From contig NC_134028.1 in assembly GCF_964204645.1 (NCBI RefSeq), positions 16,499,653 through 16,563,652 on the forward strand: a stretch of 64,000 nucleotides of DNA, written 5' to 3'. The stretch's first letter is position 1; each line of letters opens with the position of its first letter. Made by a program: the position numbers and the translations under genes. The stretch is from Tubulanus polymorphus (lineage: Eukaryota > Animalia > Nemertea). The notes beneath the pieces were generated by a model that saw nothing but the letters and a program-made list of their open reading frames with translations, had not been told where the DNA came from and did no database searches. This document shows, one piece after another, positions 8,388 through 57,815 of the stretch.

Positions 8388-9566
8388 TTAACTTTCTTCG
8401 ATCAGCCTCTTAGGTGGTACAGAAACACGACAAGATTTCCTGACAGTTATAGGAACACTATGGGCTTGGAGTTGATCAGAAACTTCAACCAAATCACCTG
8501 AGTTTCTAACTCCACTCTCAACATCTGGGTTTGAACCTTTTTGAGTACCCAGATCAGTATTGACTGGAGGTATCACTGGTACAGTAACACTAGGCATATC
8601 ATATTGTCGATTATCTACATCATCTTCACGACTACTATTTACATGAACATTTTCACTACAGGGAAATAAGTGATCAATGTGACAATAACGATATCTGCCA
8701 CCAACCCTAACTAGGTAGGTAAGAAGACCTTTCCTGTGAATAATTACACGTGGAAAGTACTTTTCAAGACCTCTCACATTAGATTAAACCATAACATTTT
8801 GTTTCTCAACAAACTCTCTAGGTTTTGATGATACGGAATCATGATATCTCCTCTGAATATCCTGTTTTGCACACATTTTGATATACATATCTGGTTTAAT
8901 AAGTGACAGCCTAGATCTTAACTGTCGTTTCCTGAAAAGTTCAGCTGGGGACCTACCTGTTATCGAGCGTGGTGTTGTTCGATACATGAACGAAAAGTTA
9001 TCCAGTCTTTTAGACGGATCAACCTTATCAACTCAAAATGCATCAAAATGTGTTTCTTGAGCGCTCGTTTAACTATTTGTACTGACCTTTTGGCCGCCCA
9101 TTTGAGTTTGGTAAACAGGTGCTGGTGTATATTTGACACCATTATTACATAAGAAGTCATGGAATTCCTCCGAATTGAATGGGGGCCCATTGACACTGAC
9201 CAACTCCTTAGGTAATCCCTCCCGAGCAAAAACACTTCTCAAGGTATAAATCACTCTTGGTGCAGTGCAGCTGTTGATGACATCATAAAACATTCCAACC
9301 ATTTAGAAAAACTATCAACATTAATGAAGTAATGTTAACCTTCAAGTTCACCAAAATCTATATGAATCCTATCCCATGCACCATTTGTTGGTCGCCATGG
9401 CAACAATGGTACCTTAACCGGAGCATTTCTCATACTAAGACACAATTGACAGTTTTGTACTAAATTTTCAATATCTTGATCAATTCCAGGATACCACAAA
9501 TAATTTCTAGCTAAAGACTTGATACCAACAATACCAAAATGTTTTTAGTGCAACTCATTCAACATG
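8388..9566 (-). pseudogene. Gypsy/Ty3 integrase (frameshifted), element 1
   Basis: HHCC region (YLWYPGIDQDIE...C..C), WDRIHIDF, LRSVFAREGLPKELVS.NGPPF, YRTTP..ITGRSPAELF, GPY/F-like C-terminus. Confidence 0.9.
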
Positions 9567-9726
9567 AGTAATAGGAAAATGACGCTTTCAGATATGGAGG
9601 TCGGAGGTCGAGACACCACTCATCACCACAAGTAATTTTTTTTCCTAATAAATAGGAGAGAGTGAACAACATACAGAATAAATTGATGTTAATGAAAATC
9701 AATATTATTGTACATATTGTAAACAA
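9567..9726 (+). repeat. Left TIR of Polinton element 1
   Basis: Reverse complement of ~19608-19767; the outer ~58 bp are identical and the inner part is imperfect. Confidence 0.9.
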
Positions 9727-9864
9727 TCTTTTTATATTAAATCTATCAACATTAACACTTCCCATTTTAAATACTTTTTTTAATACCATTGAATAACTAA
9801 CATTTCCAACTGATAGTAAGGCTCCATTATATAATCCAATTATTATCCACTTATTATCACTCAT
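9727..9864 (-). pseudogene. Truncated small Polinton membrane-protein gene (homolog of 59379-59620)
   Basis: MSDNKWIIIGLYNGALLSVG...KMGSVNVDRF matches the sequence at 59379+; runs directly into the TIR. Confidence 0.75.
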
Positions 9865-10069
9865 CTATCTCCAGTTCTACCCAGTTGCTCATGTTCTACT
9901 TTTGAGCAACTAGTTGTACTCAGTTGCTCTCATATCCGTCGATGCGAGCGCTCCATATCGGCAAAATATCGGTGATCATTATTTACGAATCGATCGTATG
10001 GATTTATTATTACAATTCATTTGAATCCGACGCCATACATGGCGATATAACGTGAACTTGCGCTAAGAG

Positions 10070-11037
10070 GTGACTCGTACTCGTGTTTGCTCATACGTGT
10101 CAAGCGGAGATCCGACAATGGGCAGAACAAAACGTAAACAAAGTCGAAACAGCTCCGGCTCTGCAAGTTCCAACGCATCCTATGAACCGGATCGTAAAAG
10201 ACACTCAACCAGAACCCGTTCTCATCAAGAACCAGTCAATGAAAATGAAAATGAAAACGAAAAAATTGCAGCCGATGATGTTTTTGAGACCCTGCCTTCC
10301 GAACGATCTCTACAGGACGAACTTTTGGATGTAAAGATTTTAGAAGTCCTCAACAGCAAAGGTGTCCGCAGTATTCTAGAATCGTTGGTCAACTCGGTGC
10401 TTTCGTCGTTTAGGAGGGAATTAACGATCATTATAAACGATAAGATGGACAGATTGGATTCTCTTACGTTGGATCTCTGGAAATCACAGGACGATCTCAA
10501 AAGTCATATGGAGACAGCCGTCGAGAAAATGAGTGCTTCGGTAAATCTCATCAAGCAACAAATTGTCGAACTGGAAAATAAATGTCCCAACAGCCAGGCT
10601 CACACTAGAGATCTCGAAGCTTACGCAGAAGAACTAGAAATGTACACAAGGCGTAATTCAGTTCGGATTTTTGGCTTAACGGAGAGTATCGATGAAGATT
10701 CAGTTACCAAATGCACCTCGTTTTTCAAAGAAAAATTGGATATTTTAATTTAAGACAATCTAATCGATCGCGCGCATAGGATTGGTAAACCGTCTATCGA
10801 TCCCCGAGTACCGCGACCACTCATCGTTAAGTTCGTTAGACATCTGGACAAAGAACGCGTACTCAAACAAAGGCGTAACCTCAAAGGTACGAAAACCCAT
10901 ATTTGCGAGGATACAACCATGAAAACGTGAGCGCGTCATGGTCGTTTGACGGTCGGATTACTGCGATCATTAATGGGAAAAAATTTAACGTAAACGGTTA
11001 AGCGGAATTCGATAGAATCCTGAATGGTCAAAAATAA
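10070..11037 (+). pseudogene. LINE ORF1 (coiled coil + L1-type RRM)
   Basis: LEMYTRRNSVRIFGL, then after a stop IDRAHRIGK...PRPLIVKFVR. Confidence 0.85.
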
Positions 11038-11317
11038 CGAATTCGCTTAGTTTCGAAAACTCCGCGCGCGCCAAACAATAATTGTATTGCGAAAACAATG
11101 ACTCGTCATATAGAACGGAGATTCTATTGTTTATTCTGGTTCGATAATAGCTATGACCACGTTCATTTTACACGTTCATTATATCTATATTTTCTTATCT
11201 ATTTTTGTTAGCATCTATATCCGATGATGGTGGGATGTTTTCAAAGTTTTTTGTGTTTTTGAATTCATGCAGGATAAGAATAGTACATTACTACTGCGAG
11301 ACTTATAATGCTGATCA

Positions 11318-14312
11318 ATGTGTTTGAATAATATTTTTGATAAGCGGATGAGTGATCTTGAGACTATGGAACAGTTTAACTTGAATAATCTAATAGACGA
11401 AGATTTTAGTTTAACCGGATCTGATTGTCCTTATCTAGATGTATCTGAAATTGGATCTATTGGAACAGGTGATTCAAAATTTAATATAGTTCACCACAAT
11501 ATTCATAGCGTCTTCAGCAAGTTAAATGATGTTAAGCTATTGATCGATAATTGTAAGAGGAAACAATTCGAAATTGATGTACTTTTACTATGTGAAACGT
11601 TTATCACCGATAATAATAAGTCCCTTTGTAAGATACCTGGGTATGTTTTGGTTGAGAAACATCGCAAGTCAATGGCTTGTGGTGGTGTGTGTGTATTTAT
11701 ATAAAAGATAGTATTTCATTCAATACCAGGGATGACCTTAGTATATTCAAAGAAGGATTTTTTGACAGCTGTTTCATTGAGATTAATTTTCGTGATTCTA
11801 AAAATTTGATTATTGGAGAAATTTATCGCGTGCCGGGTAAAAGTGAAAAACAGTTTTTAAGTGATTATTATCAACTCATAACAAATACACTAGACTCTGA
11901 AAATAAGTCAGTTGTGATAGGTATCAAAATCTGGATTACTTGAAAATAAAAAGTCATCATAATACAAATAAGTTTTTTGAAATCAACGTAAACAATGGCC
12001 TTTTACCAACTATTATAAGGCCTACTAGAATAACTAAAAACACAGCAACACTTATCGATAATATCTATGTTAGTCAAGATATTTGTTCTGCAAAATCTGC
12101 AATCTTATTAACACATTCCTCTGACCATATGCCATGCGTACTTTCAATCAAAAAAATTACTGATAAAACAATAACACAGGAATTCATGTTAGAGACCTAA
12201 ATGAAGGAAACATTAACAGAATACGACTAAGACTTGAACAGTTTAATTGGAATAATCTTGAAACTATGAATTCTGAAAACGGCAACAATCTCATAATAAA
12301 CAAATTGCATGATATATTGGATGAAATTGCCCCAAAACAAACTAAGAAACTCAAATCAGTCAAAATCATTGAACCTTGGATGACTCCCGGCTTTTTATAA
12401 TGTTCAAAGAAAAGCGACGGATTATATAAAGCAATCATTGGTACAGATAAGAGTAGTGTAAAATACAAAAATTATATATCATATAGAAACAAGTACAATC
12501 ATTTAAAAAGAGCTGCAAAAAACCTTTGGAAACCTTTAAACGTGATAGTAGAAAACTGTGGAATATTTTAAGATGTTCTATAGGTAAACACAATGACAAG
12601 AGTTCTATTATAAGTGATACTTTTGATATTCAAGGTCAACCAGTCAAGGACCCGTTTGTAATTGCCAACTCATTCTGTCAGTTTTTTAGTTCTGTCCTAT
12701 GCTGAGAAGATACGTCATTCGAGTGAAAATTATGAATCTTTTTTAGATGGCTCTAATACAAGTTCTATTTTTATATTTCCAACTGGACCCGAGGAAATAA
12801 TTAAATTCATCAATTATTTGCCTAATAAGAATAGCTCTGGTCACGATGACTTAAGTAATAACTTTCTGAAATGCATTGCAAATCAAATCAGTCAACCGTT
12901 ATCAATTGTATTCAATAAGTCTTTAGTTGAAGGGCATGTACCTGAAAATATGAAAGTAGCCAAAGTTATTCCGCTACATAAAGGAGGTTCAAAAAAGGAG
13001 CAAACTAACTATAGACCGATTTCTCTCTTACCTGTATTATCTAAGATACTAGAAAAAAATAATGCACGCTAGGCTTTACCGCTTCCCAATCAAATCTAAA
13101 AAGATTTACAATAGTCAATATGGATTTCGTCACAATCACTGCACCACTCATGCCATTATGGAATTATTAGGGAATTGTATAAGTGGGTTGGATAATAATG
13201 ACAAAGCAATGGGAATATTCCTTGACTTGTCTAAAGCATTTGATTCACTTGACATAGATATTTTATTAAACAAACTTTATCATTATGGAATTCGGGGAAT
13301 TGCATATGATTGGTTCAAGAGTTATTTAAATGGACGGAAAATTTATGTCAAATATAATAGCTTTGAATCGGAAATCAACACTGTTGATTACGGAGTTCCG
13401 CAGGGATCGGTTTTGGGGCCACTCCTATTTTTGTTGTATATAAACGATCTTAGTCATAATCTAGACAACTGCAAAGCTATTTTATTTGCCGACGACACCA
13501 CACTTCTAATTGTAGGGAAAGACTTTGAAAAAATAACTAAACATCTAAGTGACGACTTCAAAATTGCTATCAATTGGTTCAGGGCAAATAAACTCACGCT
13601 CAATATAACAAAATCTGCTGGACTTTGTATTAAACCACATCATCTAAGAATTGACAATCCCACTTTAAAATTTGAAAATAGCCAAATCGAGTTTGTTCAT
13701 GTGCATAGATTTTTAGGACTGCTGATTGATGATGAAGTTACATTTGAAAGTCACGTGAAATCTCTTTGTTCTAAGCTGAATAAGAATATTTACCTATTGA
13801 AATGTGTGAAAAATCTTTTACCAAGCTGGTCAAAGCGATTGCTTTACTTCAGTTACATAAACTCTCATCTAGCATACTGTTTATCTATCTGGGGCCCATT
13901 TATCTCAAAGAAGCAAGTCAATGTTTTAACCAACTTACAAAAGAAAGCAATCCGTGTTACTGGTTGTGCTAAATACAACGCCTCTACCTCACCTCTTTTT
14001 AAAAAGTTCAAGATTCTGAAGTTTGAAGATATGATAAACTTAGAACTTATCAAACTTGCATATGGATTTGTTTATAACCAACTTCCGCAACCAATTGTAA
14101 ATTTATTCAATAGAAATTCCTTTAATCATAGATATAATACTAGAGCTCGAAACCACCCTAGAATCCAAGCCCACAAAACCAGCATTTTCAATAAGTCATT
14201 CCTCTGTAAAGTTCCTTCAATTTGGCAAAGTCAACCTTTACTCATTAAATCCGCTCCAACTATAAACACCCTCATTAGTAGGTTCAAAAGAGATATTTTT
14301 AACCAATATTGA
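11318..14312 (+). pseudogene. LINE ORF2 (APE endonuclease + reverse transcriptase), frameshifted
   Basis: LLCET, PTRIT..TATLIDNI, SDH, NYRPISLLPVLSKILEK, FLDLSKAFD, GVPQGSVLGPLLFLLYINDL, LFADDT. Confidence 0.95.
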
Positions 14313-14605
14313 TACAAAATAGATACTTATACAAAATACTATCCTAATTCATACACGTCTGCATGATTTAAATTCATCTTAATTTTTCATCAACTCATCC
14401 CTCTTCATTTGTTCTTTTCTTTAATTTGTTCTTTGTGTTCAAGGTGTCTGAACATCCGTTTTGATATACAGCCTTTATGGCTTTGTTCAGGCTCCTGTCA
14501 CCTCATTGTTTGTAATTTACTATTGTTATTATTAATCTTGTACATATTGATGGTGACAAATAAACTACTATACTATTCTTATAGAACCAAAATTAAAATA
14601 TCTAG

Positions 14606-15139
14606 ATGAAATATTTAATATATTTTCTATGGAAGATCATACACCAGAATATAAGCAATTGCTTGAAAAAATGAAAATGATAGAAAATAAAAATGGTGAA
14701 ATAACTAAAAAAGATATTATAAAAACAATTATTCCATCAACATTTAACACACAAGAAAAGAAAATGTATTTATATCTATTATTTAACGATTATTATAAAA
14801 AACCCTAAATTAACAGAAGAAGATATGGAAAATATAAAAGAAACATTCACAAACATATTAAAATATTATGTGGATAATAGAATAACAGATTCAATTAATT
14901 ATGAATTCTTTTTAAATAAGATTGTAAATTTTTTAAACATCGATATTATAATTCCATTTGATGAATTAACGAATAAAAAGAAACAAAGAGAGCGAGATGA
15001 AATGTGGTACAAGATAGAACTTTATTTAAATGAGAAAAATGAAATGGAAGAACCTAAACAAATTATACAAGAACAATTAAATGGAAAAGAAGAAACCAAT
15101 AGTGATTTCGAGTTTGATGATATTAATCCATTTCAATAA
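14606..15139 (+). pseudogene. Polinton hypothetical gene(s), convergent with pPolB
   Basis: AT-rich ORFs 14629-14808 and 14825-15139 inside the TIR-bounded element; no recognisable motif. Confidence 0.45.
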
Positions 15140-18100
15140 CCATAAGGTAATGTTTTTATACCATCATCTAAAATATGCCTTTTATCATCAAATGGATTCA
15201 AGCTAGTCTTTTCAACTTCATTAATGTACATCTCGTGATCTTCTGATCTTAAACAATTCATTTTATGTTTCATTACAATTGAGTTATATAAACACTTTAT
15301 ATAATCTTGAAATTCTATATGTTTATCAACCACATGTTTTGTTTAACTTTTTAGCCTCATGATAGCCTCATTTTCTATAACTGTACATTTTACTTCTTAT
15401 CCCAACAAATTCAATCATTTCATCACCCCCTAATTCATCTTTAAACTTACCAGGAATCTTTTCATTATCATTGCTAAATAGTTCATGATCTTTGGGATAA
15501 TTGCTAAAATCAAAATGATGTTTTATGTTTTTAAGTCTTTTGTTATATCATTTGTCTTGATTTTTAATATGTACGCATCCGTATTGGCCGCAATTAATGG
15601 ATTAATGGAAATCCACAGTTAAATGTTCCATCTTCAGTTGATAAATCATAGACATAATCTGATGGGATATATATTTCAAATAAATCTTTAACTTCTTCAG
15701 TTATTACTTTTTCTGTATGCCTTAGATTAAAACAATTTGGCATAGATTTAATCAATCCAATATTCACATCAAAACCTAATGAACTGCATAATATATGTAA
15801 TCCTGATAAAGCAACTTTTCCTTTTTGTGCAAATGTTATTTCTGGAGAACTCATAAATTTTTTAGCACCATCTGCAGCATAAAATCCAATGAAGAACCAT
15901 TTTCTTAAATTATCTTTTGCATTTAATACATAATCTGGAACTATCTTTTCTTAAGTTGAAGTATTACTTTTAACTATTGCATGAATATAGAATTCGTCTT
16001 TATATTTTATAGCAAAATCTTTAGGGTTATTAACGAGTATTCTATAAACTGCTGATGATTTCATAACATCCATGATTCTAAATGTTTTATGTGAATAAAC
16101 TTCTTTACAGAATTTCTTAATTCTTTCTAATAATTTCAAGTCTTGATTGCAAATAATAATACCAACAATATTTAAAATATATGTAAATAAAAATACCAAC
16201 AATATTTATTACCCCAAACACTATTATACACACCTGCTGAACCATCTCCCATGAAAAATCCTTTGATTAAATATTCTTTTTCTTCCAATGTTTCGGGTTC
16301 TATATTGAAAATATTATCAATTATTTCATTAAATGATATATGATTCCTTCTTTGGAAAAATCTTTTATGTAATAATTCATCTCCAATTTTTATATTAGTT
16401 GGTTTTATTTCATCACCATTTCGTTTAATTAAACTATGATCTTCTGTAACATCTACAAACCCTAATTTAGTTCTAACTCTATAGATTTTCTTATTTGTTT
16501 TATGCCTAATTTTATTCTTAAATTTTTTCCATCCATTTCTTGTCCAAACATCCATTAATTCATTTATTTGTATTAATTCTTTTTCACCATACGAATTATA
16601 ACATTCATTATGTTTTGGAATTATTTCTGAAATTCTTCTAATTAATATCTTACTATTACATTTTAATAATATTGGGTGTCAGCTGTTACAGAATCAAAAT
16701 ATAATATTTCAATATGCTTTTCCCCAAAAAGTGGTTGTAAAACATTATAATAAAAATCATACATAAATAATTTTGATACTTCTAAAACAGTTGAACCAAT
16801 GAATATAGGTTTATTAAATTTCATTGACGTTCTTTTTAATTTAACTGCTGTTAAATAATCTTCAAATCTTTTATTTCCTAAATGTCTAGGACTTGATTGT
16901 AAATGTCTGAATCGTTCCGAATTATTTACTAATTCAATATAACTTCTATTTCTAATATTTTCACATGTTTTACCATAAAAACTATTATTCATTAATTTGA
17001 AGAAATCTTTTTCACAATCTGTTTTTGATATGGTTCTCTGTTGTGTATTAAAATCTATATATTTTTCTAACAACTTCGATTGATTAAATTCAATATATCG
17101 ATGTACTTTCTTTAATTTCATTCCTTGTTTAAGATAAAATTTTAACATTCTATAATGAACAATATAATTGTATTTATTATTTTGAGTAAGTATTAATTTT
17201 TCTGTAAAAACATTTTTTAAGATTTTTTATCTTAAAGTGACTCCAAATATCTAATGTTCTATTAAAAACTTCATCTTTCATATACTCCTCTTTTAATTGA
17301 TCATAAAATTGTTATTTTAATAATTCTGTTTCATTAAAATCATCATGTGTTTTATAAAATGAATAAGGAATTGCGCCTTTATATCTCAATAATTTAAAAT
17401 CTTGTTCATTTGGGTAATAATGTCGAGTTATTACAAAATCATTATCAACTAAACTTTTTGCTAAATTATCTAATGAACTTGCTAGAAATCTATAAGAATC
17501 TAAAAATCTAATGCAACCAAATTAAAATGAAATATAATTTTCGGATGTCTTAGCTAATAGTTTAAAATCATATTTTCTTACATTTGTACCATTCATAGCA
17601 TTATATTCTTCTATTTCTTGGAGAATTGTGCCAAATTTTCCTGATAATTGTTTTATAAATAGATGGGTATCATAGCCCGATAAATTATGAAATAATATTG
17701 GTACGAAATTAACTTTCTTAGCTTGTAAATTACAATCTTCATGAGCAGCTCCACGATATTTTGCATTTAAATGATCATGATCTCTAACTTTTTTATCAAA
17801 TGAATGAAAACGTTTTTCACAGTAACAACAATGAGTTGAGTAATTAAAATAAATTTCATCTTCTTTTGTCATAACTATTCTTTTATTTTTGTTTAATAGT
17901 TTTGCAAAATCACTTTCTAATTCAATTATTTTGTTACAAAAATTATTAACTACATCTTCACCTCTAAAAGGAATATATTGACTTTGATATAATTCAGGAT
18001 AATTTGATTTTATGTAAATTCCATAAGCAGCAGCTCTTTGATGAACTTTTTTAATTGTGTTTATAATTGGTGGATTGAATCATATCTTCATTTAATTCAT

Positions 18101-19682
18101 TTCCTTTATCCATTGATTTTAAAATTTGCTTTTTATTATATATTTCTTTTCTATCTTGATTAGTTAATTCTTTATTCAACGATTCAAAATCCCCATAAAT
18201 TACAAATGGCACTCTATTTTTTAATTTATGATTAGTAAATTTCAATTTATAATCTTTTTCTGTTGGCATTATTAATTTACATAAATCTTTATTATCACAT
18301 AATTCTTTATGTTTTAGTAATGCATTTTCAGTTCTAAGTTTAGATAAACATTTTCAACATAAATATATTTTGCTATGACTGTTGAAATCACTTTCTGTTC
18401 TAAAGAATAAATCAATTTGTTTTAACCACATATAATGTTCATTTTCATCTTTTTTGTAATATAACAAATCTATAAAATTTTCATCGTCATAATGTTTTGT
18501 TAGATATAAAGCTTCTAATGTATAATCTTTAATATTTTCACCTTTTTTCTTTGGTAATTGCATTAATTCGAATACATTTATTTTTAAATCATTATCTTTT
18601 TCTATTTTAGGAATCATTTTTATAGTTACTGGATATTGATCAATTTCATATTTTTTTTCATATTTCTCGTAATTTGTCGTACAACAAACATTTTCCTGAG
18701 TTGGGTGTAAGCGACTAATAATTGACCATAGAAAACATTTATTATCTTTATTTTGAATATTTATTACTGCTTTTGTTGTAAATGGTAATTTAATATAAGA
18801 TGATGCTTTAATATCCTTTTCTGTTGTAAAGTTTGTGTCATTTTTAAACATTGTTTTACTTTTTGATGTTTTAATCATTTTTGTATTATAAACATTTAAA
18901 TCTAAAAATATAATTTCATTCAATGTTAAACCAGAACCCTCAAAATATCTTTCTTCAATATGTCGTTTAAATTCATTAAATATTTTTTCTAACCTCTCTT
19001 TTATTTGCGTTTTTGAAATTATTTCTTCAGAGAGTGTTTGAATATCATAATCCATTTCATCTTCTGACTTTAAAAAACTTACTTTCCCAGAAATACTAAT
19101 TTTTGGATATTCAACATCTGTTACCAAATCTAGTATTTTTTCCATGATTTCAATAAATTTACTATAATCTTCTATTGTTGTACATTTAAAAAATCTAAAT
19201 ATAATAGCTGCAGGACCAATTTTACTACGTAATGTTTCTAATATTTCAATTATATCTTTTATTTCTAGTGAATCGATATAATTTCTAACATTTTCCATGT
19301 AAGGTTTATTTGAAATGGATTTAGTTTTTGAAGTTGATTTTTTTACTTGTTGAGGTTTATCATCAAAATATTCTGATCCTCAAACATTTTTATTTGAATT
19401 TTGATAGTGTTTTTGTGATTCGAGATGTCTTTTATAATTCCTTTTTACTATAAATTCATTACAAACAATACATTTAATTTCATCTTTTTTCATATCATCT
19501 AATCGTTCTTTTCTTTCATTGGAATTTTCTGGAGTTTCAAAATCTATTACATTTTTCATATGATTTGTAGATTTTTCATGACGCGATTTTTGATATTTAT
19601 CAATGTATTTTTTACAATATGTACAATAATATTTATTTTCATAAACATCAATTTGTTGTGTGTGTTGTTCACTCTCTCCCAT
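15133..19682 (-). pseudogene. polB: Protein-primed family B DNA polymerase (pPolB) of Polinton 1, intein-containing, frameshifted, internal deletion near 17215
   Basis: N-terminal C2H2 fingers; SSYIKLP/INIQNKDNKCFLWSI; VIYGDFES (ExoI); RDHDHL..YRGAAH..CNL; FHNLSGYD (ExoII); KLMNNSFYGK (motif B); YFD|intein|TDAY; LNPFDDKR. Confidence 0.93.
15583..16692 (-). mobile_element. Intein with LAGLIDADG homing endonuclease in pPolB motif C (degenerate)
   Basis: Block A SVTADT(P)ILLK; block B VDVTEDHSL; block C LIKGFFMGDGS; block D KIVPDYVLNA; block E FFIGFYAADG; block F YVYDLSTEDGTFNCG; terminal Asn followed by Thr (IAAN|TDAY) once an 8-bp duplication is removed. Confidence 0.92.
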
Positions 19683-19767
19683 TTATAAGGAAAAGAAATC
19701 ACTTGTGATGATGAGTGGTGTCTCGACCTCCGACCTCCATATCTGAAAGCGTCATTTTCCTATTACT
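19608..19767 (-). repeat. Right TIR of Polinton element 1 (contains the pPolB start codon)
   Basis: Inverted match to 9567-9726; the ATG at 19682 lies inside it. Confidence 0.9.
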
Positions 19768-19773
19768 AACATG

Positions 19774-20395
19774 ATCTGTTTGAACTTTGGTGGTATAACA
19801 ACTCTCAATCCCAAAAGTATGCAACCCTGATTCACAGATAATTCATTTCTGCGCCTAAAATAAGGCAAAATATCAGGATCATTGCAGTGATTAGGCCAAC
19901 CATTAAGTATATGTTGTGACATTGTTGGATCTTTTCTTATCTCAGACTCAATGTCTGCAGCATTAATAGGTAACACATTCACATACGTAAAATAATTAAT
20001 ATCCAGTTCCACTGCTTCCATCTCAGCATTAGGATTAGGAATTCCAGACAACATATCACAGTTTTCATGATCTTTACCACTTCTATGCACAATTTCGTAA
20101 TCATATGCCATTAAAGTAAGTGACCTCCTTTGCAGACGCAGAGCTGCCAGGGCCGGAACTCCTGTTTTCGAACCAAAAATTGTTACAAGAGGTTTGTGGT
20201 CAGTGACCAACAGAAACTTTCTACCGTATAGATATTTGTGGAAGTGCTCGACTCCGTAAATGATTGAAAGAGCCTCACGTTCAATTTGGGAGTAATTGCG
20301 TTCTGCAGGAGTCAAACTACGATTACCATATGCTATGGGTTTCTCTGAGCCATCTGGAAACTTTTGAGAAAGAATCGCACCTAAACCATACGGAT
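19774..20395 (-). pseudogene. Gypsy RNase H region, element 1 (continues into integrase at 9566)
   Basis: PYGLGAILSQ...PIAYG; AERNYSQIEREALSIIYGV..FHKYLYGRKFLLVTDHKPL; VVIPPK. Confidence 0.92.
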
Positions 20396-20422
20396 TTAAA
20401 ATATTATTAAAAATTGAAAAGG

Positions 20423-20608
20423 CTATATGTTCAATAGATTTTTATTCGATATATTGTAAAATGAGTTACATAAACTAATATTTACTAATTCTAAATCAAC
20501 ACAATTTCTAAATTCTCTATCTAGTTGTATCAATAAATAATGAGATTTATAATTTTTAAATCTTCTTGAATCAACAAATATTCTATATTCTTTTGATTTA
20601 TCTTGCAT
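20423..20608 (-). pseudogene. 5' part of penton/minor-capsid-like gene
   Basis: KEYRIFVDSRR...LCNSFYNIS is nearly identical to the 58245+ protein. Confidence 0.65.
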
Positions 20609-20625
20609 TTATTTTACGTATTTTT

Positions 20626-20964
20626 TCATTCGAAATCTATATCATGACATCCTCTTTCATTCTTACCTTTGTATATGAAATAGAAATCACCAGAACACAC
20701 TTCTAGATCTTCACTAGATAATCTATGAAATCTATCTGGTAAATTTGGTCTATATTTATATCTATTTCCTTTTAATCCTTCATATTCTAAGTGAATAACT
20801 AATTTATTACCATATCTATTAGTAATTGTTTCAATATTTGTAATTAAATATCTCTTATGTAATGTTAATTCGGTTAACTTTTTGAATTTATAATATACAG
20901 ATTTGACATTTGTAGTATCTTTTATTCTATCTAGGAATTCACTGTGTATTTGTTTACTCTCCAT
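20626..20964 (-). CDS. Small Polinton protein, possibly OB-fold ssDNA-binding (112 aa, open)
   Basis: Homolog of 57875-58230; beta-rich pattern FKKLTEL...YLITNIE...YGNKLVIHL...LPDRF; the fold is an inference. Confidence 0.55.
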   Translation of the reverse strand: MESKQIHSEFLDRIKDTTNVKSVYYKFKKLTELTLHKRYLITNIETITNRYGNKLVIHLEYEGLKGNRYKYRPNLPDRFHRLSSEDLEVCSGDFYFIYKGKNERGCHDIDFE

Positions 20965-22180
20965 TTATTATACATATTTTTTTATTAAAATTGATTTCAT
21001 TGATATTATATTCATTTATATAATGTTCATATTTGTGAATATTATTAGAGTAATAGGGTAAGTGTTGTTTCAGATTAAAGGTTGAAAGGTTGAGTGAGTA
21101 AAAAATAAAAATAAATTCGAGTGTGTATTTATTTTTATCTTTTATGAGCTCGACCTTTCGACTTTTGATCTGACACAAGACTTACCCTATTACTTACGTC
21201 AGGTCGATTTGTTTTATTGTGAGAAATGGCCGGTTATAGTTCAAAAAGACCGACAGGCCAATGGGTATCGCTTTCAAACACTTTTTAATGATAATTGGAC
21301 CGACAACTTCAATGAAAATATATGATGAAGTTTATTTCATTCAAAAAAAACTTATTTCACTGTATGAAAAACGCAGGTAGCCATAACGCGCGCGTCAACA
21401 TGAGCACATATGCTGTCACTGTAGCGTGTGCAGTGTGAGACACTTTGATCTGCCAGCACGCGCTTGCCTCGCGTAGTACATATATGGCTAGACGCCGACT
21501 GTTGCGATGCAATACGTCTGCAGTAAATGAGTAAACGCACGCCACATTGCCATACAACTCGGCGATAATTTCGGTCTTACTGTATGGCTTTCAAGGACAT
21601 TGTCTAGCAACCTTTCAAATTTAAAGACTCCCGCTGACTTTCCCGGCACAAAACAAGGAATTTAAGACCGCTACGGTACCGACCCTTTTGATATTTTTGA
21701 TATTATTGTGATCAACTTCTAGGCCTATCACCATTCAAACCAATATAATGTCAAATAATCTTGAATACAACGTAACCGGATCTATTTTGCAGCGTATTTA
21801 ACCCCATTTATCGTATCTTTCGTTAATTCAATGACTTTAAAAATGGTGCGCTTTGGTTCGCGGTAAACATACACGACACCATGCCGAACCACTCGTAATA
21901 GCTCTCTAAAAATAAGTAACCTATCGTACTACTCGTCTCGTAGTTCATAATTAAACATACCTGTAAATGCTGAAGGTATCGTAGTGAGAAATATCTTCTG
22001 ACACCTGACAAGAACGCCATTTATCGGATTTTGCATACCTTGCACTATATTTTCAATCTGAAAGCATATTGAAACGTAGGTACAAGAGTCAATTTACCTT
22101 ATTATTGTCTCACTGTGAATTCTACTAACATATCGAAGATATACACGCCACACAGTTGGGCTTAACTGTAATCTAGAATC

Positions 22181-22699: not shown

Positions 22700-23036
22700 A
22701 TTACAGTACAAAATGTTAATTCTAGTATATTAAATATTTTACCTTTGAAGAATGTGAACGAATTTGGAACGCAAATAAAATATTTATAATTTATCAGAAT
22801 GTGATTTTAAACCTTTTATTTCTCAATTTAATAATTTGAAATTAGAAATCATAATGGATATTTGATTGATTTAAATAAATTTCCTGTAATTTATGAATAA
22901 GTTATGAGATGTAAAGATTAATCATTATTTTTTTTATAATAGAAAATATGAATATTAATGTAGGACCGAGTATATCTTTTGGATTTGATTTTAAACATGG
23001 TAAAGAAATGAGAATTAAACATATGTGATGACTGAT
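22700..23036 (+). pseudogene. 3' part of penton-like gene and start of the next gene (Polinton element 3); continues after 30441
   Basis: Nucleotide homology to 58790-59110 (TTTGGAACGCAAATAAA...GTAGGACCGAGTATA). Confidence 0.75.
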
Positions 23037-31704: not shown

Positions 31705-33010
31705 CCGTCATACCCGACACTCCCAACATTCCCAACAATCCCTGACATACCCGGCACTCCCGACACTCCTGATACACCCGACATTCCCGACAATCCCGAC
31801 ATACCCGACTCTCCCAGGATAGTAAAGTATAGGTGCTGGGATAGTGAGGTATAGAGGTGCGGTTCGACTCCGGAATAGGTCAAAATAGTTCCATCGTGGA
31901 TGGTTTTCTTAAAAACTGTGAGTGGTTTGGTTTCAAATTGCCGTAAGAAACCTGATTGTCGACCATTTCTCAAGTCGACAATCGGCAATCAAAAACCTGA
32001 TTGCCGATTGTCGACCTGTTTTCGAGTCGGCAATCGGCAATCGGCAATCAGAAACCAATCACCCACAGCATCTATATCACCCTCACAATCGCAGCATCTA
32101 TATCACCCTCACAATCGCAGCATCTATATCGCCCTTACAATCACAGCATCTATGTCACCCTCACAATCACATCATGTATTGCACCCTCACAATCACGGCA
32201 TCTATTGCACCCTAACAATCACAGCATCTATTGCACACTCACAATCGCGGCATCATTATCGCCCTCACAATTACAGTTTCTATATCACCCTCACAATCAT
32301 AGCATCTATATCACCCTCACAATCACATCATCTTTATCGCCCTCACAATCATAGCATCTATTTCACCCGCACAATCGCAGCATCTATAGCAACCTCACAA
32401 TCGCAGTATCTATATCACCCTCACAATCACAGCATCTATATCGACCTCACAATCACAGCATCTATTTCACCCTCACAATCACAGCATCTATATCACCTTC
32501 ACAATCACAAAAAAATCACAACATCTATTTCACCCTCACAATCACAGTATCTATATCACCCTCACAATCACAACACTGAATTTTATGAAAGTCAATAAAG
32601 GGAAATGGTCGATTTCCGATTGTCGAACCGAGAAATGGTCGACTAGCAGGTTTCCGATTGCCGAATGCCGGGAATTGCATAGTGAGGTATAGATGTTCTC
32701 AATAATGAGGCATAGATGTGATGGGATAGTGAGGTATATAGATGATGCTGTAATGATAGTGAAGTATAAACGTGCTGGGCTAGTGAGGTATAGAGGTGCC
32801 GGGCTGGTGAGGTATAGAGGTACCGGGATAGTGAGGTATAGATGTGCCGGGATAGTCATGTATGGAGGTGCTGAGAGTCCCGGGTATGTCGGGCTTGCCG
32901 GGAGTGTCGGGTATTTAGGGATTGTCGGGAGTGCCTTGTACGTTGGGATTGTCGGGTATGTCGGGAGTGCCGGGTATGTCAGGAATGTCGAGTATGTCGG
33001 GAGTGCCGGA
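31705..33010. repeat. Minisatellite cluster: 9-bp (ACATACCCG), 26-bp (CACAATCACAGCATCTATATCACCCT), 24-bp (GGGATAGTGAGGTATAGAGGTGCC) and inverted 9-bp arrays
   Basis: Units read directly at 31705-31815, 32060-32575, 32680-32880 and 32880-33010. Confidence 0.9.
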
Positions 33011-33894
33011 CTAAATTTGATAAGCTTGGCAGAATCACACCTTTTCAAAATTAGAAAAACTACATCTACGCACTATTTCACAAGATACTGGACTTGACCC
33101 TCTATGGTATTTTATTCTTGTACTAACTGACCGACAAGTCTATAAGGAAATAAAATGTGGGTTTTTATACGCATTTTAGAGTGTAGTCCATACAAAATAG
33201 AAAACAGTACAACCGTAAATATAGACCTAATTTTCTTTTCATATTTTTCAATCATAAAGTGGACATAAGGGGTATAAGTTATATCCAAGTGATTGAAAAT
33301 GCATTGAAAATGCATTTTTCAGTCCTTAGAAAATTTACTCACATTTATGATTATTTCTGCAGATATAATAGAAATATATGCCACAGCCAAAGCATGGGAA
33401 AGAACTAGGCCTACTACGAAACTTTGTTCGGACACGTGAGGTCTGAATTAAATTTCATAATTTTGGTTATAATCGATTGGGTGACGGCGGAAGGCGATAA
33501 AACGAAAATAATTCTTTTCCTGGTTGTTAAGTCGGAAAAAAAATATTTCATGTATATTTAAAAGTGAACATTCGAAACAAAAAACCTGGTTGGGCCTAAA
33601 TAATCAGTATTTTCCAACTGTGATCAATTTTTAAACTGGAGGCTTGGAATGATAAAAAAGAACCAAAGATATGAATTCAAGAAGATCAGTAACTTTTATT
33701 GAATTAATAATTCATTTAAGCTAACCAATTGGTAATGTGCATTAGATTTAATAATAATCATATAATAGGATATTTCATTCCATAAATTAACAGTTTTCAA
33801 GAAATGAAAGAACAAAATAACGGACCAACTGGCCCTGTGGCTCACTTTCAAATCATTGAGTGTATATTGTCAAAAATTAAATACTAACTATAAA

Positions 33895-36413
33895 ATATAG
33901 CTGCTTAGCAGAAATAACGGGTTTTCTGCACAGTCTTAGAATGCTGTTCAACGGTGGGTTTCTACAGAGCATTTGATAAGGCACAACATCAGCCATTACT
34001 AAATAGGCTATTATGAAACAGTATCAATGATAGGTCGCCCAAATGGCTCAGAAGTTATCTCTGAACGAAAACTTGTAGCCGAAATCAACGGAACGCCTCA
34101 TCTTGGAATAAGTCGGCCGTTCGACCAAAAAACTTAATGTTCCGACAAGAAAATCTTGTTCAAATGAAAACAATTCTGTTTGATCGAACAATACGCTTCG
34201 AATAAAAGCTATGTTGTTGTTGAAATGAAAAACTTTTGTCCCGGCAAAAAAATTGGTTGATCGAAAACAATTTTTTTCGAACGAATGTTTGAATGAAAAC
34301 AATTCTGTTCGATTGTACGAAATACTTAATACTTTTGGTTCGTAGAAAAAAACTTTTTACAATATACTTGTTCGAACGAAAAACTTAATGTTCTGACAAG
34401 AAAATTCTGTTCAAATTAAAACGATTCTGTTCGTTCGAACGATTGTTCGAATGAAAAACCTTTCGTTTGGACAAACAAAAGTTTGTTCAACTTTGTTCTA
34501 ACGATTTTTTTCAAATTGGTTCAATCGAACAGAATATTATTGGTACGAACGAAATAAATTTTGTGTCGACGAAAGAATTTTCAAGCGAAAGGTCTTTTGA
34601 ACAAAAAAAAAGATATTTCTGGAGCTCAGCAGTATAACTTAAAGCCGGACGTAGGTCGGCCTTGCAACGCGATGCGATCCTCGCGTTGCATCGCAAGTTT
34701 CGGTGCAATTCGGTTGCGATACGATTGTCAGCGACTGTGTGCGACTAGTTTCTGCCAGTAGCAAGAGCGCGTAGGTCGGTTGTGACAGTCGTGTCGCGTC
34801 GCAGAAAGTATAACCCGTGCGACTCCCTGCGACTGGCGTTGCTGACAGTCGCAACCCGTCGCAAGGGAGCGTAGGTCGATGAGTCGTTGCGACACAATCG
34901 TCGCTGGCGGTCGCAGTGAAAATTGTCGCAGTGAGTCACAAGCCGTCACAAAGCCAACCTACGTCCGCCTTAACTCATTAGGAATTAATGAAATACCAGT
35001 TTCATTTATGATGAAAAAACTCAAATGAAAAGTCTGGCATATAAAGCTGTCTGCTCAGACGATATTTTCAAAAAAAAACTTCATTTTTGCCAATAAAATT
35101 GATAATTGTGATTTATCGTTGCAAGTCAGAACCAGTTAATCACTAATTAACATGCATTTTAATAAATCTGATTCCCTCCTTTGAAGTGAACTTAGCTTTA
35201 ACCTAGTAGAGGCTACTAGCCTATGTAGGCCTATGTATATGCGTAGGCCTAACATCCGGACAGATTTGTCGTAGGCCTATTGAATAACAACCCTCCTAAA
35301 TATCGTAAATTTTGTTTTGAAGTTCAATCCAATGAGTCCGTTAATAACCGCAACATTTATACTGTGTTTGTTTGAGACAGTAAAGGTCAGTACCGGTAGG
35401 CCTAAAGCCTTAATGAGGTCACGTAAAACTCGATAAACACTTCAAGCGACACAGCGAACGATCTCCTTTCCCCCACAGCGAACGCTTACTCCGATTGTCA
35501 AGTGTGAGTCCAGCATACGGATAGGAGTGTGTTTTAACCTTGTATTTAGTAAAAACCTTGTGCATTTGACAATGATCGGTATGTACTGTAGGAAATATAG
35601 AGAATTGATGGTATTGATATAGAGGTTGAAGCCCGCGGCCGAATAAAGTAATATATTCTTTTATTTTGATACCTCGTCGACATAACAGCTTTTCTCCGCT
35701 ATATCTCTTCAAAGTGTTTAGTTTAGGCCTACGACTACGCGGTACACTAAAGATTTATTTTAGTAAATACACGGTTAATTTGGTAAAGAAAAATAGGTAT
35801 TGTTAAACTAACTCCTTGAAACCCGCAGCCAAATCACTGGTAGTAATACATTAATTTGTACTCGATTTGATTCTCACGATGAGGAGAAACTCGCAGCTGA
35901 TCCCCGGAACGACGATGTAGTGACACACGTCGATTCGTCGATGTTTACGGCTCGAAAGTGCTTTTAAAATCTAAAGTAGTAAATTTCCAGTGTATCGGTA
36001 ATATGATTTGATGAGGAAAATGGGCTATTGTTAAAATTTTGAAGACCGCGGCTGAATTTGAAACCGCGACAATAAATTAGTTCATTTATACTTGAATTGA
36101 TAATCGAAGTGACAATCGGCCTGCGGGTTGATTTCGGGATGACGACTCGAAAAACATCTCGCCCCATTGAATGGGGCTAAATTTTCGATGTTTACGGCCG
36201 GACAGTGCTTTTGTAACGATGATTCGTGAAAAAAACACGCGGAGTATTTGTAGATCTCAGCAGTGAGCTGAACGATATCATACGGATTGTATCGACAACA
36301 GCGGCAAGGCAACAAAGCCTTAGTTCATTTAGTGAAAATAGTGTGACATAAAATAATAATAAGAACACGCGAATCTCAATAGGGTTTTCTGTGATGTAAC
36401 AGAAAAACCCTAA
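33895..36413 (-). mobile_element. Helentron-type (HINE) non-autonomous element, present only in the left arm
   Basis: Empty site AACTATAAA|TTAATATGG in the right arm (~46255); hairpin AGGGTTTTCT...AGAAAAACCCT; subTIR plus CTGC-TTA-GCAG stem-loop; no TSD. Confidence 0.75.
34643..34970. mobile_element. PIF/Harbinger-like MITE nested in the HINE
   Basis: TIR AG(C/G)CGGACGTAGGT(C/T)GGC; TAA TSD at 34640-34642 and 34971-34973. Confidence 0.8.
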
Positions 36414-38907: not shown

Positions 38908-38977
<70 letters not shown>

Positions 38978-39241
38978 TTTATTTACGTGTCATCTTTTTT
39001 ACAAAGCCAGCCTCCTAGAGGCTTACGAAACACAATATGCATATACGTACAGAAAGTTACATTGAATTGTAAATTATTAGTAGAAGTTAAGATAGTACGT
39101 GTTATTCTAAATGACGGCATTGCGCAGTTGTAGGGCTGTATTTATAAAGTTAGTTAGCGACTAATTTACAGACTTTACCTTCATTTAGGAGTAGAGAGAT
39201 TCTACTTGATACAGGTAGGTCTAAAATATCGATATTCAACT

Positions 39242-43217: not shown

Positions 43218-43250
43218 TGTTATATTACAGTCTAGAGACTGGCTGATGTC

Positions 43251-44321: not shown

Positions 44322-44559
44322 TGAAAATTTCGAGTGAAAATAAAGGTTTTGCGATGTCTATATATTACCGGACGAACCGATAAATGTTCTGACGTACTGT
44401 TTCTTATGGATAATCGCCAGTCACTGATATAATATTGGTACCCAGTTCCATCAGGAAACGGTCATTATAAAGGTTTTTGATCGAGCCAAAGTACAGCGTG
44501 TCCATTGGTGTCCGCCATCTTGTGTATATCTTATTCAGTGTTATTACCAACTCGAAAAT

Positions 44560-52700: not shown

Positions 52701-53256
52701 GTCAACATGAAAATATTGATACGTAAATCGAATCCATATCATAAGCATACTTATTATTGTACAAATGAAATTAGGAAATACGACAAATTAACAGTTCATT
52801 AATACTTAAATAATGCTTAAAGTTATCGCACAGTTCACATCGCTCGCAAGCAGCTCGCAAGTTAAAAAGATTTCATCGCCAATTAAAATATATTACAAGC
52901 TCGAAGTTAAGATATTCCAAATTAAGAGTTCTTTATTTCTAATATTTTATCGCACAGCACAGTGAAATATACCACAAGTCAAAAAGAGTTATTTAGTTCG
53001 AATTAAAAGATAGTATGAATAAAAAGTTCATTAATTTCATTTATTCTATGAATTAATTTAAAGATTTATTTCAACAAAAGAGTTTAATGCACAGTTCAAA
53101 TATATTGCAGTTGTATTGTGGATGAATATGTTTGAATAAATATCGTGCTTTCAAATGTTCTTGAAAAATCGCCAAGTGAGGATTTTACCTAGGGGATTTT
53201 TATCTACAACCATCTAAAATGCCCCAGGCCCAACATCCAGTAGGTTTATGGCGAAA

Positions 53257-53708: not shown

Positions 53709-53761
53709 TTATAGAATACATCATATTTTGAAATTTAAAAAAAAGTCAGTTACCCTTTAAA

Positions 53762-56700
53762 ATGGAAGCAGATAAGAAGTACTCCCGTCCAACATGTAAA
53801 ATCAATATAGATAAATCTAAAAAAGCAAGACATAATAAAACTAAATCTCACTTAGAGAATAAATAGAAATTAGAATATAAAGATGATATATTAGAAACTA
53901 AATTAGATGAAATGAAGAATGAAAAAGAAATATATAAATGTGATACATGTAATCAATCATTCAGTTACAAAAGATATTATGAACAACATTTAAAATCTAA
54001 AAATCATATTAGAAATATTAATAATGATATTTTAGGTGAAGATTATTTTGATAAAGATAATGATAAGAAACATAAGACAATTAAAAAAATGAAAAATAAA
54101 TTAAAAAATAAAAGACCATACATGGAAGATGTTAGAAATTATATTAATTCATTAGATAATAATAAAGAAATAGAGATAACTGAAGCATTTAAAAGTGATA
54201 TTGGTCCAGCAGCTATCGAGTTTAAATTTTATAAAGGTAAAACGTTAGAAGAAAATTAAAAACATTTAGAAAATATGAAAAATATTATAAAAATAATTAC
54301 TGATGTTGAATACCCTAAAATTAGTATATCAGTTAAAAGTAAATTTATAAAATCTGAAGATAAACCAATATATAATATAAATTCCCATTCACAACATATT
54401 ATTTCAAAACAACATATAGATGATAAATTAAATAAATGTTATAGTGAAGTAAAAAGTAAAATAGAAGAGAAATATTTTGAAGGATTTGGATTAATAGTTG
54501 ATGAAATAATATTTATGACTTTACATGTATACAATACAAAATATAATAAATTAACTAAATCGAAACCAATTGATGAAAATAATTTATCATATTATAAAGA
54601 TGATAATATAAATGGATCAAGTTATATCAAACTACCATTTAAAACTAATGCTGTTATAAATGTACAAAATGAAGATGATAAATGTTTTCTATGGTCAATA
54701 ATTAGTTACTTACACCCAGTTGAAGATTATAAACAACATAGTCTTAGATTAAAACATTATAAACCATTTGAAAATAATCAAAAGATAGATAATTATCCTG
54801 TCAGATTTAAAAATATCCCAAAAATAGAAAGAGATAATAATCTAAAAATAAATGTATTTGATTTATTCAAATAACCAAAAACAAAAGGTAATAATACAAC
54901 ACATTATACATTAGAACCTTTATATCTATCAAAAGATTATGATTCAAATGGTGTTATAGATATATTATATTATGCAAATCATTTTATGTGGATTAAAAGA
55001 AATGATTCATTTTTCAAATCAGAAAATGATTTTGAAAATAAAATATATCTATGTAGAAAATGGTTAAATAAATTCAGTAATGAAAGTGCATTATTAAATC
55101 ATAAAAGGTTATGTGATAATCATGATTATTGTAAAATGATTTTACCAAATGGAAAAGATAAAATATTAGAATTCAAGAAATATTTTTACAAAAATAAAGT
55201 ACTATTTGTAATATATGGTGATTTTGAATCACTAAATAAAGAATTAACTGATCAAGATAGAAAATAAATATATTATAAAAGAAAGAAATTAAATTCTAAT
55301 CAAAATGATGTAATTGATTATTCAGATCCTCTAATAACAAATACTATTAAAAAGATTCATCAAAGTGCTGCAGCTTTTGGGCTATATATTAAATCTGATT
55401 ATCCAGAACTAATTGAAAGTGAATATTATCATTATAGAAATGAAAATGTTATCAATCATTTTTGTAACTTATTAATTGAATATGAAGTAAAATTTCATAA
55501 ATTGTTAAATGAAAATACATGTACAGATAATAATTATGACAGAAGATAAAGAAGAATTTTAGTTTGCAGATAAATGTTTTTATTTTGAAAAGATATTTAA
55601 TCTAAAAGATAAAAAAGTAAGAGATCATAATCATTTGAATGGAAAGTTTAGAGGCGCAGCGCATGAGAATTGTAACTTACAAGCAAAGAAAATCAATTTT
55701 GTTCCAGTTATATTTCATAATTTATCAGGATATGACGCACATTTATTTATCAAACAGTTATGCCATAAAATAGAAGAAATCAATAATGAAATAGAAATAT
55801 TAAATTCAAATAGATCAAAAGATAAAATACCAACTTCTAAATTTAAGATATTAGCTAAAACATCTGAGAATTATATATCTTTCCAATTTGGGCGTCTAAG
55901 ATTTATAGATTCATATAGATTTTTAAGCAGTTCATTAGATAATTTATCAAAATCATTAGTTGATGATGAATTAAATATATTAAACTCTTTCCATGCTAAC
56001 TTCCTGAAAATCAGATCCCGAGACTGTGCTAACTTTATTTCGAAAAAAAATTTTTTTCGAAAAATATTGGGTTCTCAAACTTCTAGACGGTCTAATACGC
56101 TTCCCTACACTAAAATATGATGATTCAGCTTGTTTCTGATGATCTAGCAATTCTGGGGTCGTTAGGGGCCCCCAAAATGTCCAAAAAAAATTTGACCTAC
56201 TTTCGGGTCATTCGGGTACCCCTACCCCTAACTGCAGCTTCATATTCTCTCTATATATCTCCATTATATCCACTGCGCTATGCATAGACACCGTATACCA
56301 GCCGCTGTGTCTACTTATAAAGCTTTCAATTTTGCCCTACTTTGTTTACACAACTTGACCTCAATTCACCGATAATGACTTTCGTGACCTAGATAGATTT
56401 TATTCATACACCCGCCAGCGAACTCGAACAAAAACAAGTCCCTGGGGTTGCCGGGACTACCAGGCATACATACAAGCCGTATAAGCTTTATACATTTTAT
56501 GCCATTTAGACAGTAAGGGGATATATAGGTCATCCAACTGTGACGTGGCGTCACACCCGCACAAACTAGCGTCCGGTCACAGTTAGCATGGAAAGCAACA
56601 TTATCCAAATAATGATGATTTTCAATTAATGAGATATAAAGGAGCAATTCCATATTCATTCTATAAAAATCATAATGATTTCAATATAACTGAATTATTA

Positions 56701-57815
56701 AAAGAACAATTCGATGATGAATTAAGATCCGAATGTGTTAAAGATGAAATTTATAAAAGAACATTGAATATTTGCAATCATTTTGGGATGAAAAATCATG
56801 GACAATTAGTAGATTTATATTTAAAATCAGATGTATTATTATTAACTGATATATTTGAAAGGTTTAGAGATCTAAAATATTTTAATATAGATCCATGTCA
56901 TTGTTATTCGAGTCCAGGTTTAACTTGGGACTGTGGTTTAAAATTTACAGATATAAAAATGGATTTGTTAACAAATATAAATCAATTACGAGGAGGAGTT
57001 TCAGGTGTATTGGGTGATAGATATTTCAATATAAATGATAACCCTGGATATAAGTTATTATATATAGATGCAAATAATCTATATGGTTGGGCAATGATGG
57101 ATTACATATCCTAAATTCATTGGTAACAGAATATTTGATGAAAATTTAGCTGCAGTTAAAATGAGGAGAACTTCTATGAAATTTAATAAACCAATTTATG
57201 TTGGGGCAACAGTTTTAGAAATATCAAAATTATTAATGTATGAATTATATTATAACGTATTACAACCTCATTTTGGAGAAAAGCATATAGAAATCTTATA
57301 TTTTGATACTGACAGTTACATATAAAAGATTAAAACTAATAACCTAACAGATGATTTAAAAACATTAAAACATCATTTTGATTTCAGTAACTATCCAAAA
57401 GATCATGAATTGTTTAACAAAGATAATAAAAAGGTGCCCGGTAAATAAAGATGAATTAGGTGGTGAAGAAATGATTGAATTTATAGGCATTAGGTCTAAA
57501 ATGTATTCATATAAAACTAAAACTCATGAAGCTAAAAAGTTAAAAGGAATAACCAAAAGTGTAGTAGAAAAGAATATTCATTTCAAAGATTATATCAATT
57601 GTATATTCAATGAAGAAGTTAGAAAACATAAGATGAAATGTTTAAGATCAGAAGATCACGAGATGTTTATTGAAGAGATAGAGAAGATAAGTTTGAATCC
57701 TTTCGATGATAAAAGATATATTTTAGATGATGGAATTCATACAGTCGCTTATGGTTGCAATTTAGATGAATACTTAAAGTTCAAAAGAGAAGAAACAAAG
57801 AGAATGAGATTATGA
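53762..57815 (+). pseudogene. polB: pPolB of Polinton 2, intein-free, with deletion near 57105
   Basis: C2H2 fingers; INVQNEDDKCFLWSI; VIYGDFES; RGAAHENCNL; FHNLSGYD; YLKSDVLLL (ExoIII); YIDANNLYGWAM (motif A); LYFDTDSY at 57296-57319; LNPFDDKR. Confidence 0.93.
55984..56595. mobile_element. TTAA-inserting non-autonomous TIR element (piggyBac/Kolobok-like) inside pPolB
   Basis: TTAA-ACTCTTTCCATGCTAACT ... AGTTAGCATGGAAAG; removing it restores ELNILK|QHYPNNDDFQLMRYKG; right tip eroded. Confidence 0.7.

Follow-up and report, generated by a model that had tools for sequence, protein, structure and literature searches.

A 64-kb stretch of DNA (hereafter the window) carries a dead copy of an intein at the pol-c position, in the catalytic motif C of an integrated, Polinton-derived family B DNA polymerase of the protein-primed kind (pPolB). 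The host is likely an invertebrate, and the intein belongs to a lineage that likely entered Polintons once, from a giant virus, and that likely spreads by homing; we give this reading a probability of roughly three in four. The parasite sits in a Polinton polymerase and not in a host gene, and the stronger news lies behind the fossil copy, in a living, polymorphic clade of inteins.

The insert occupies 1110 bp of the minus strand (16692-15583; Table 1) and is organized as a Hint intein with a LAGLIDADG endonuclease. Upstream, the polymerase frame reads IEILYFD to position 16693 and the intein opens with SVTADT at 16692; downstream, the terminal Asn lies at 15583 and the extein restarts with TDAYILKIK at 15582, placing the insertion point (marked by a slash) at YFD/TDA. 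A second, related polymerase copy in the window reads IEILYFD/TDS with no insert, and both ends of the intein are thereby fixed. Compared with the intact intein of the related polymerase P0001, the window intein is 61% and 57% identical over two long segments (tblastn, combined E 7e-148). The residues of class 1 inteins (Ser or Cys first, TxxH, block F Asp, terminal Asn, and +1 Ser, Thr, or Cys) are present in the window segments, and the block B His and Thr-region columns are invariant or nearly so in two intein alignments (A1 and A2). The original prediction of an intein at this place is thus borne out by both junctions, the length of the insert, the match to P0001, and the empty site in the second copy; the blocks it named (VTEDHS, GFFMGDG, GFYAADG, VYDL, and Asn before Thr) all fall in unbroken segments, and its assignment to the pol-c site agrees with the position in motif C and with kinship to other pol-c inteins.

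Table 1. Coordinates and evidence for features of the window.
Feature	Position	Strand	Evidence and remarks
Polinton-derived element	9567..19767	.	Inverted repeats and target duplication; 10.2 kb, about 5.5 kb minus nested LINE
Left terminal inverted repeat, AGT start	9567..9727	+	161 nt; matches right repeat at 93%, with no difference in first 59 nt
Right terminal inverted repeat	19607..19767	-	Overlaps 5' end of polymerase frame
6-bp target-site duplication, left copy	9561..9566	+	Sequence
6-bp target-site duplication, right copy	19768..19773	+	Sequence
N-extein, protein-primed family B polymerase with endonuclease VII/HNH-type insert, pseudogene	16693..19640	-	tblastn with P0001, P0315-P0318
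Intein with homing endonuclease (Hint and two LAGLIDADG motifs)	15583..16692	-	3 frame changes and 1 stop; ends from empty site of copy 2
Intein block B, VTEDHSL (Thr and His of TxxH)	16430..16450	-	Sequence; alignments
First LAGLIDADG motif, LIKGFFMGDG	16241..16270	-	Sequence
Second LAGLIDADG motif, FFIGFYAADG	15867..15896	-	Sequence; PF14528 above cut-off on corresponding part of P0001, P0004
Intein block F, VYDLST	15636..15653	-	Sequence
C-extein of polymerase, begins at +1 Thr, pseudogene	15133..15582	-	tblastn; junction
VLTF3-like late transcription factor gene, broken, convergent with polymerase	14557..15139	+	PF04947 E 4e-7, above cut-off
Nested LINE (ORF1-like, endonuclease, reverse transcriptase)	9870..14560	+	PF00078 E 8.5e-27, endonuclease pieces; ends approximate
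Interrupted Gypsy-type pol, RNase H side	19768..20441	-	PF17917 E 3e-27
Interrupted Gypsy-type pol, integrase side	8787..9566	-	PF00665 E 0.002
Second related polymerase copy, empty site at 57307/57308, pseudogene	53762..57800	+	71-82% nucleotide identity to copy 1

The residue before the terminal Asn is Ala in the window intein, not His. At this position the 12 complete relatives described below have His in ten cases, Ser in one (P0001), and Lys in one (P0004), and 134 RNA-primed pol-c relatives have Lys (87), His (42), or Ser (5); since Lys outnumbers His in these relatives, the penultimate His is dispensable in this lineage. Hint and LAGLIDADG profiles, suggested earlier as a check, gave a divided answer: pieces of the window intein remain below the curated cut-offs (PF14890, E 0.005; TIGR01445, 21.9 bits versus 24.5 required), with no Pfam family matching its C-terminal half, whereas some profiles do recognize intact relatives. 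TIGR01445 scores above its cut-off on P0043 and P0056 and just below it on P0001, P0004, and the window piece, with no match in P0055. A single-sequence fold of the N-terminal piece of the window intein reached a pLDDT of 38; the model of the P0001 intein, built on a 51-row alignment, reached 93. The latter is predicted to combine a Hint fold with a LAGLIDADG domain, and in Foldseek comparisons it matches the intein-endonuclease crystals TliVMA, PI-PkoII, PhoVMA, PI-PfuI, and PI-SceI (E 1e-16 to 1e-9). Its best viral fold matches are polymerases of a phycodnavirus, Pandoravirus, Marseillevirus, and Megavirus.

The polymerase itself is recognizable as protein-primed. Its core segments are 54-59% identical to P0001, on which PF03175 scores E 5e-17 (E 4e-5 on copy 2), and PF02945 marks the endonuclease VII/HNH-type insert of the N-extein at 17522-18079 (E 1e-4). 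The surrounding element bears the marks of a Polinton: a protein-primed PolB, AGT-ended inverted repeats, whose terminus AGTAAT is an imperfect (AGT)2, and a 6-bp target duplication. Inverted repeats ending in AG or AGT, together with a 6-bp target duplication, define Maverick/Polinton integration (PMC8097293), and a VLTF3 gene is known from one polintovirus subgroup (PMC11131425). No integrase, packaging ATPase, protease, or major or minor capsid gene was recognized within 9567-19767, and we read the element as a Polinton derivative that has been internally reduced rather than as a complete Polinton. The polymerase frame begins its zinc-finger codons inside the inverted repeat (19607-19682 / 9650-9727), with the result that this coding stretch is found at the start of the element from either end.

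The element has landed in a Gypsy-type pol gene, with RNase H on one side and integrase on the other, and the Gypsy frame picks up again across the duplicated 6 bp. Given the inverted repeats, the target duplication, and the insertion in a Gypsy gene, the element is chromosomal and truly integrated, not a free contaminant. No target duplication was found around the LINE nested within it. An artefact is accordingly hard to credit, be it a contaminant, a chimeric assembly, or the misreading of an intron or a chance insert as an intein: target duplication in a Gypsy gene and a nested LINE indicate real integration, a translated intein matches the insert at 57-61% identity, and the same junction occurs in frame in the independent records P0001, P0266, and L041. 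P0266, for instance, reads EILYFD/SVTADT in frame and is 67% identical to the window piece. The Polinton context originally proposed is therefore upheld by the inverted repeats, the 6-bp duplication, the pPolB, and the VLTF3-like gene. The further proposal, of a jump into an animal Polinton that was then endogenized, is supported as to integration; the intein is not the product of a one-off jump, being rather a member of a clade that dwells in pPolBs.

The window at large intersperses LINEs with Gypsy elements; its flanks are retroelements only, and no host gene was seen within its 64 kb. These LINE and Gypsy types are, we presume, ones common in invertebrates. The eukaryotes named among the 120 best relatives of the window polymerase are the coral Oculina patagonica (four proteins) and the mussel Mytilus coruscus (two); all six have an empty site, and the mussel pair is 78% identical to the occupied P0055. 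Retroelement flanks and coral and mussel relatives together suggest that the host chromosome is likely that of an invertebrate. It is also conceivable that the intein is real and that the host of the window, or the hosts of the intact copies, are protists or other non-animal eukaryotes, which would repeat a case known from the nuclear scaffolds of Klebsormidium, Tetrabaena, and a labyrinthulomycete, where viral-like DNA polymerases carry inteins (PMC10710043); in view of the retroelement mosaic and the named relatives, we consider this improbable, and an invertebrate host remains our preferred reading.

Several other structures were observed in the window. The region of copy 2 (53200-64000) is Polinton-like. 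At its left end, 458 nt (53253-53710) recur almost perfectly in inverted orientation (54411-54868); farther on come an unrelated insert at about 56000-56590 and several small membrane-type genes, one of which (60171-60500) is weakly SLATT-like (E 0.004). It also contains a DUF5901 gene (58245-58999), which gave no PDB match and which, from its motif pattern, we presume may encode a penton. A third related element is represented by fragments, 81-82% identical to copy 2, at 20426-20997 and 22707-23016, with a 146-nt palindrome at 21049-21194; the locus has the look of a nested-insertion cluster. A large nested fold-back around a LINE spans 32800-47350, its inverted arms 95-100% identical (e.g., 32813-33563 versus 46583-47333), and also holds tandem arrays of 26 nt and 9 nt.

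To judge from its reading frames, the window copy is non-functional, a fossil that could not be translated through. Within the intein, the frame changes near 16675, 16190, and 15600, the second break being a local duplication and the third an 8-bp duplication, and an in-frame stop lies at 15953-15951. The earlier diagnosis of a dead copy stands overall, as do the frameshifts it placed near 16675 and 16190 and the 8-bp duplication; the frameshift it placed near 15960 is instead this in-frame stop. Over 3.4 kb of extein sequence the frame changes four times and six stops occur. The density of lesions is similar in the two parts (3.6 per kb in the intein, 2.95 per kb in the exteins), which suggests that intein and exteins decayed together after integration; at that time the intein was presumably still intact. 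Inspection led us to reject a spliceosomal intron at the break near 16190, since the sequence there is locally duplicated and conserved residues would be lost under a GT-AG reading. Fungal RIP was likewise rejected as a reason for the low GC content, as adjoining retroelements retain 32-42% GC. CpG is depleted in the Polinton copies (15132-19640 and 53200-64000), where the ratio of observed to expected is 0.57-0.58, and 0.36 in the intein; the flanks and the LINE, at 1.0-1.1, show no such depletion.

Intact relatives of the fossil exist, in which the insert is in frame. Intein searches and cluster look-ups yielded 12 complete inteins in pPolBs (P0001, P0004, P0055, P0056, P0173, and seven members of the P0043 cluster) and partial ones in P0002, P0003, P0006, P0036, P0266, and locus L041, the last with one stop. 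The complete inteins are only 40-47% identical between families, and all 12 keep Ser1, VTEDHS, the acidic residues of both LAGLIDADG motifs, VYD, and the terminal Asn; across pPolB inteins the site reads YFD, YMD, YLD, YGD, SSD, or ASD. Among the best 120 of 1302 relatives of the P0001 intein, 114 lie in RNA-primed PF00136 polymerases, five in pPolBs, and one in a topoisomerase II, and P0043 weakly matches both halves of the split pol-c intein of Nanoarchaeum (E 0.03 and 0.8). The intact relatives stem from ENA/JGI assemblies. IMG/VR gave no relative of the polymerase and no match to the pPolB-type N-junction; GTDB genomes and plasmids gave none, and phages one weak match. A DNA pattern for the C-terminal junction gave one viral and four metagenome matches, of which L041 is a pPolB and L038/L039, L040, and L042 are giant-virus-type polymerases; the 16 inteins that could be excised from 37 IMG/VR loci all sit at YGD in RNA-primed polymerases. 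Two near relatives of the window's Polinton polymerase, P0319 and P0322, are source-labelled Bartonella sp. and Sulfurimonas sp., and are probably host-derived contigs within bacterial assemblies.

Occupancy of the site is patchy. Of the 120 sequences that match the window polymerase best, 118 have it empty, one has it occupied, and one is unreadable. The intein state needs five changes on a polymerase tree of 48 rows (9 occupied and 39 empty, picked from polymerase relatives and intein searches), and an empty sister is present for each of the window copy, P0001, P0043, and P0055/56. ENA contigs ranging from 57 kb to 1.0 Mb carry the 136 members of the P0043 cluster; among the 15 listed from the 40 of 136 that were read, seven are occupied and intact, six are empty, and two are too short. 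Occupied and empty copies coexist in this family at about 98% identity, with exteins that are 94-99.7% identical, yet 10 of the 11 residues that separate them lie at 1035-1085 of 1191, around a site that follows residue 1041. Six separating residues fall within 20 residues of the site (binomial p 7e-7, a value that rejects scatter only, because a conversion tract is a single event). Such a tract of differences is the footprint that homing with co-conversion, or escape of the empty copies from cleavage, would leave. Empty copies of the P0043 family carry three different site sequences. Two of these empty copies, P0164 and P0166, have Cys in place of Thr in motif C (YTD/CDS).

The same pattern could, in principle, follow from one old gain, vertical inheritance, and repeated precise loss, with no present homing among Polintons. 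The intein tree matches the polymerase tree once P0004 is set aside, and because the two agree in this way, including for the HNH-type polymerases, vertical descent with losses would also explain the distribution; nor can counts of changes separate gain from loss. We nevertheless hold this history to be unlikely, given that the endonuclease motifs are intact in every complete intein despite the low identity between families, that the separating residues cluster at the site, and that P0004 requires a horizontal move.

The origin of the lineage was addressed with 190 inteins cut out by motif, 156 of them at least 300 aa long, and with the separate intein and extein trees that had been proposed at the outset. 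The 12 best matches of the window intein among the 156 full-length sequences are the 12 pPolB inteins themselves. For three intein trees, subsets of 61, 51, and 31 rows were chosen that left out near-duplicates, short inteins, and less similar rows, and in the last tree long branches as well. Each of the three trees unites the pPolB inteins in a single clade (support 100; 100/97; 100/100), and the seven pPolB rows stay together in every tree and in 100% of 200 bootstrap trees, although an AU test does not reject a position of P0004 outside the others (p 0.17). Under a mixture model this clade is nested in a larger one (99/95) that also takes in inteins from giant-virus genomes of IMG/VR, and under LG+G4 its sister falls, unresolved, among RNA-primed pol-c inteins; the sister group thus varies by model, and the root rests on the chosen outgroups. 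The giant-virus kinship first suggested from the window is borne out by these trees and by the viral fold matches, and a single entry into Polintons from a giant-virus polymerase is the simplest reading, and a likely one. Several independent captures from giant viruses into separate Polinton lineages might be proposed from the patchy distribution and from the existence of giant-virus inteins with the same C-terminal motif, yet a single clade in every tree and the confinement of the window's best matches to pPolB inteins make such captures very improbable.

Over the 18 bp of site DNA, the empty site of the window shares only 9-12 bases with six giant-virus-type loci, which makes ordinary homing an improbable mode for the first jump; a relaxed or non-allelic form was probably needed. 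Elsewhere, two sites outside polymerases, EGD/S and DQD/S, are occupied by inteins of this wider family in giant-virus-type topoisomerase II proteins (P0005, P0038, P0219, P0268, and P0300), a sign of non-allelic spread. P0004 is known from a single contig of 5.3 kb, and P0207 is an intein fragment that resembles its intein; its exteins barely align with other pPolB exteins (best E 0.001), PF03175 scores 111 bits on it versus 62 on P0001, and from its motif we take its polymerase to be of VSR type. Because an intein of the same clade resides in a polymerase that can barely be aligned with the rest, the intein appears to have crossed between two deep pPolB classes. These are probably the Alpha (group 2) and Beta (group 1) types of PMC8502044, a study that describes the two types of Polinton PolB as diverging in this manner.

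In class 1 inteins, splicing proceeds by acyl shifts via Ser1 and the +1 Thr, assisted by the block B His and the block F Asp, and ends with cyclization of Asn. In an intact element, the intein would be expected to excise from the polymerase precursor by means of these same residues and to rejoin the YxD-TD active site; the polymerase would depend on splicing, because the halves of motif C must be joined. The endonuclease may then cut empty polymerase genes of Polintons that are co-resident or co-infecting in the same nucleus, and repair of the cut would copy the intein in together with some flanking sequence. The lineage, which likely entered Polintons once from a giant-virus polymerase, would in this way spread among them by homing. 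A bolder version holds that a live, giant-virus-derived intein homes among animal Polintons, has crossed between the two deep pPolB classes, and drives empty copies to alter the codons of their active site, and that these are the first working inteins of animal nuclei; we offer it tentatively, at somewhat less than even odds. The intein preserves in sequence what is likely gene flow from giant viruses into Polintons, offers a route for inteins into animal nuclei, and comes with a multicopy family suited to measuring homing, co-conversion, and target escape. If the bolder version is true, it would represent a natural homing gene drive in animal nuclear DNA.

These findings place a known pol-c allele in a host protein class and, likely, in a kingdom without described inteins. 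A survey of eukaryotic inteins states that inteins are absent from metazoan genomes, as the original prediction had assumed, and lists viral inteins only from large nucleocytoplasmic and unclassified viruses (PMC5784728). No Hint intein in a protein-primed polymerase was found in the main texts of the accessible full-text literature that was searched; the available portions of PMC12220804, PMC3671162, PMC13768754, PMC5718144, PMC4104785, and bioRxiv 10.64898/2026.10.13.758929 hold nothing on pPolB inteins.

Several known systems share parts of this arrangement. The site is that of the pol-c inteins (YGD/TDS, position III; PMC549080) in RNA-primed PolBs of Mimivirus and other Nucleocytoviricota and in archaeal PolB3 (PMC549080, PMC5784728), with which the pPolB inteins share the motif C position, Ser first, Asn last, +1 Thr, a LAGLIDADG endonuclease, and 36-40% identity to the best of those compared. 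The pPolB inteins form one branch inside the pol-c intein tree; unlike the others, they reside in a protein-primed Polinton polymerase, on an integrating element. With animal Polintons/Mavericks (adintoviruses), among them those with Beta-type PolB and the VLTF3-bearing subgroup (PMC8097293, PMC8502044, PMC11131425), the window element shares AGT repeats, the 6-bp duplication, the pPolB, and a VLTF3-like gene, but it has an intein, a term that does not occur in the available portions of those three papers, and shows no recognizable gene for capsid, protease, ATPase, or integrase. The HNH and VSR domains that are fused into Polinton pPolBs (PMC10748475) likewise place a homing-type nuclease inside a pPolB, like the endonuclease VII/HNH-type insert of the window, and such inserts have been suggested to stem from intein invasions (PMC11161782, citing PMC10748475). 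Those domains, as described in the available text, come without a Hint module, and that text makes no mention of Hint, LAGLIDADG, or inteins, whereas the window holds a complete splicing module in the catalytic motif, with empty alleles. The nearest precedent is the set of algal and protist scaffolds introduced above (PMC10710043), in which an intein likewise reached a eukaryotic nucleus via an integrated viral polymerase gene; there the hosts are algae and a protist and the polymerases only "viral-like," whereas here the host polymerase belongs to a multicopy Polinton family, likely of an animal.
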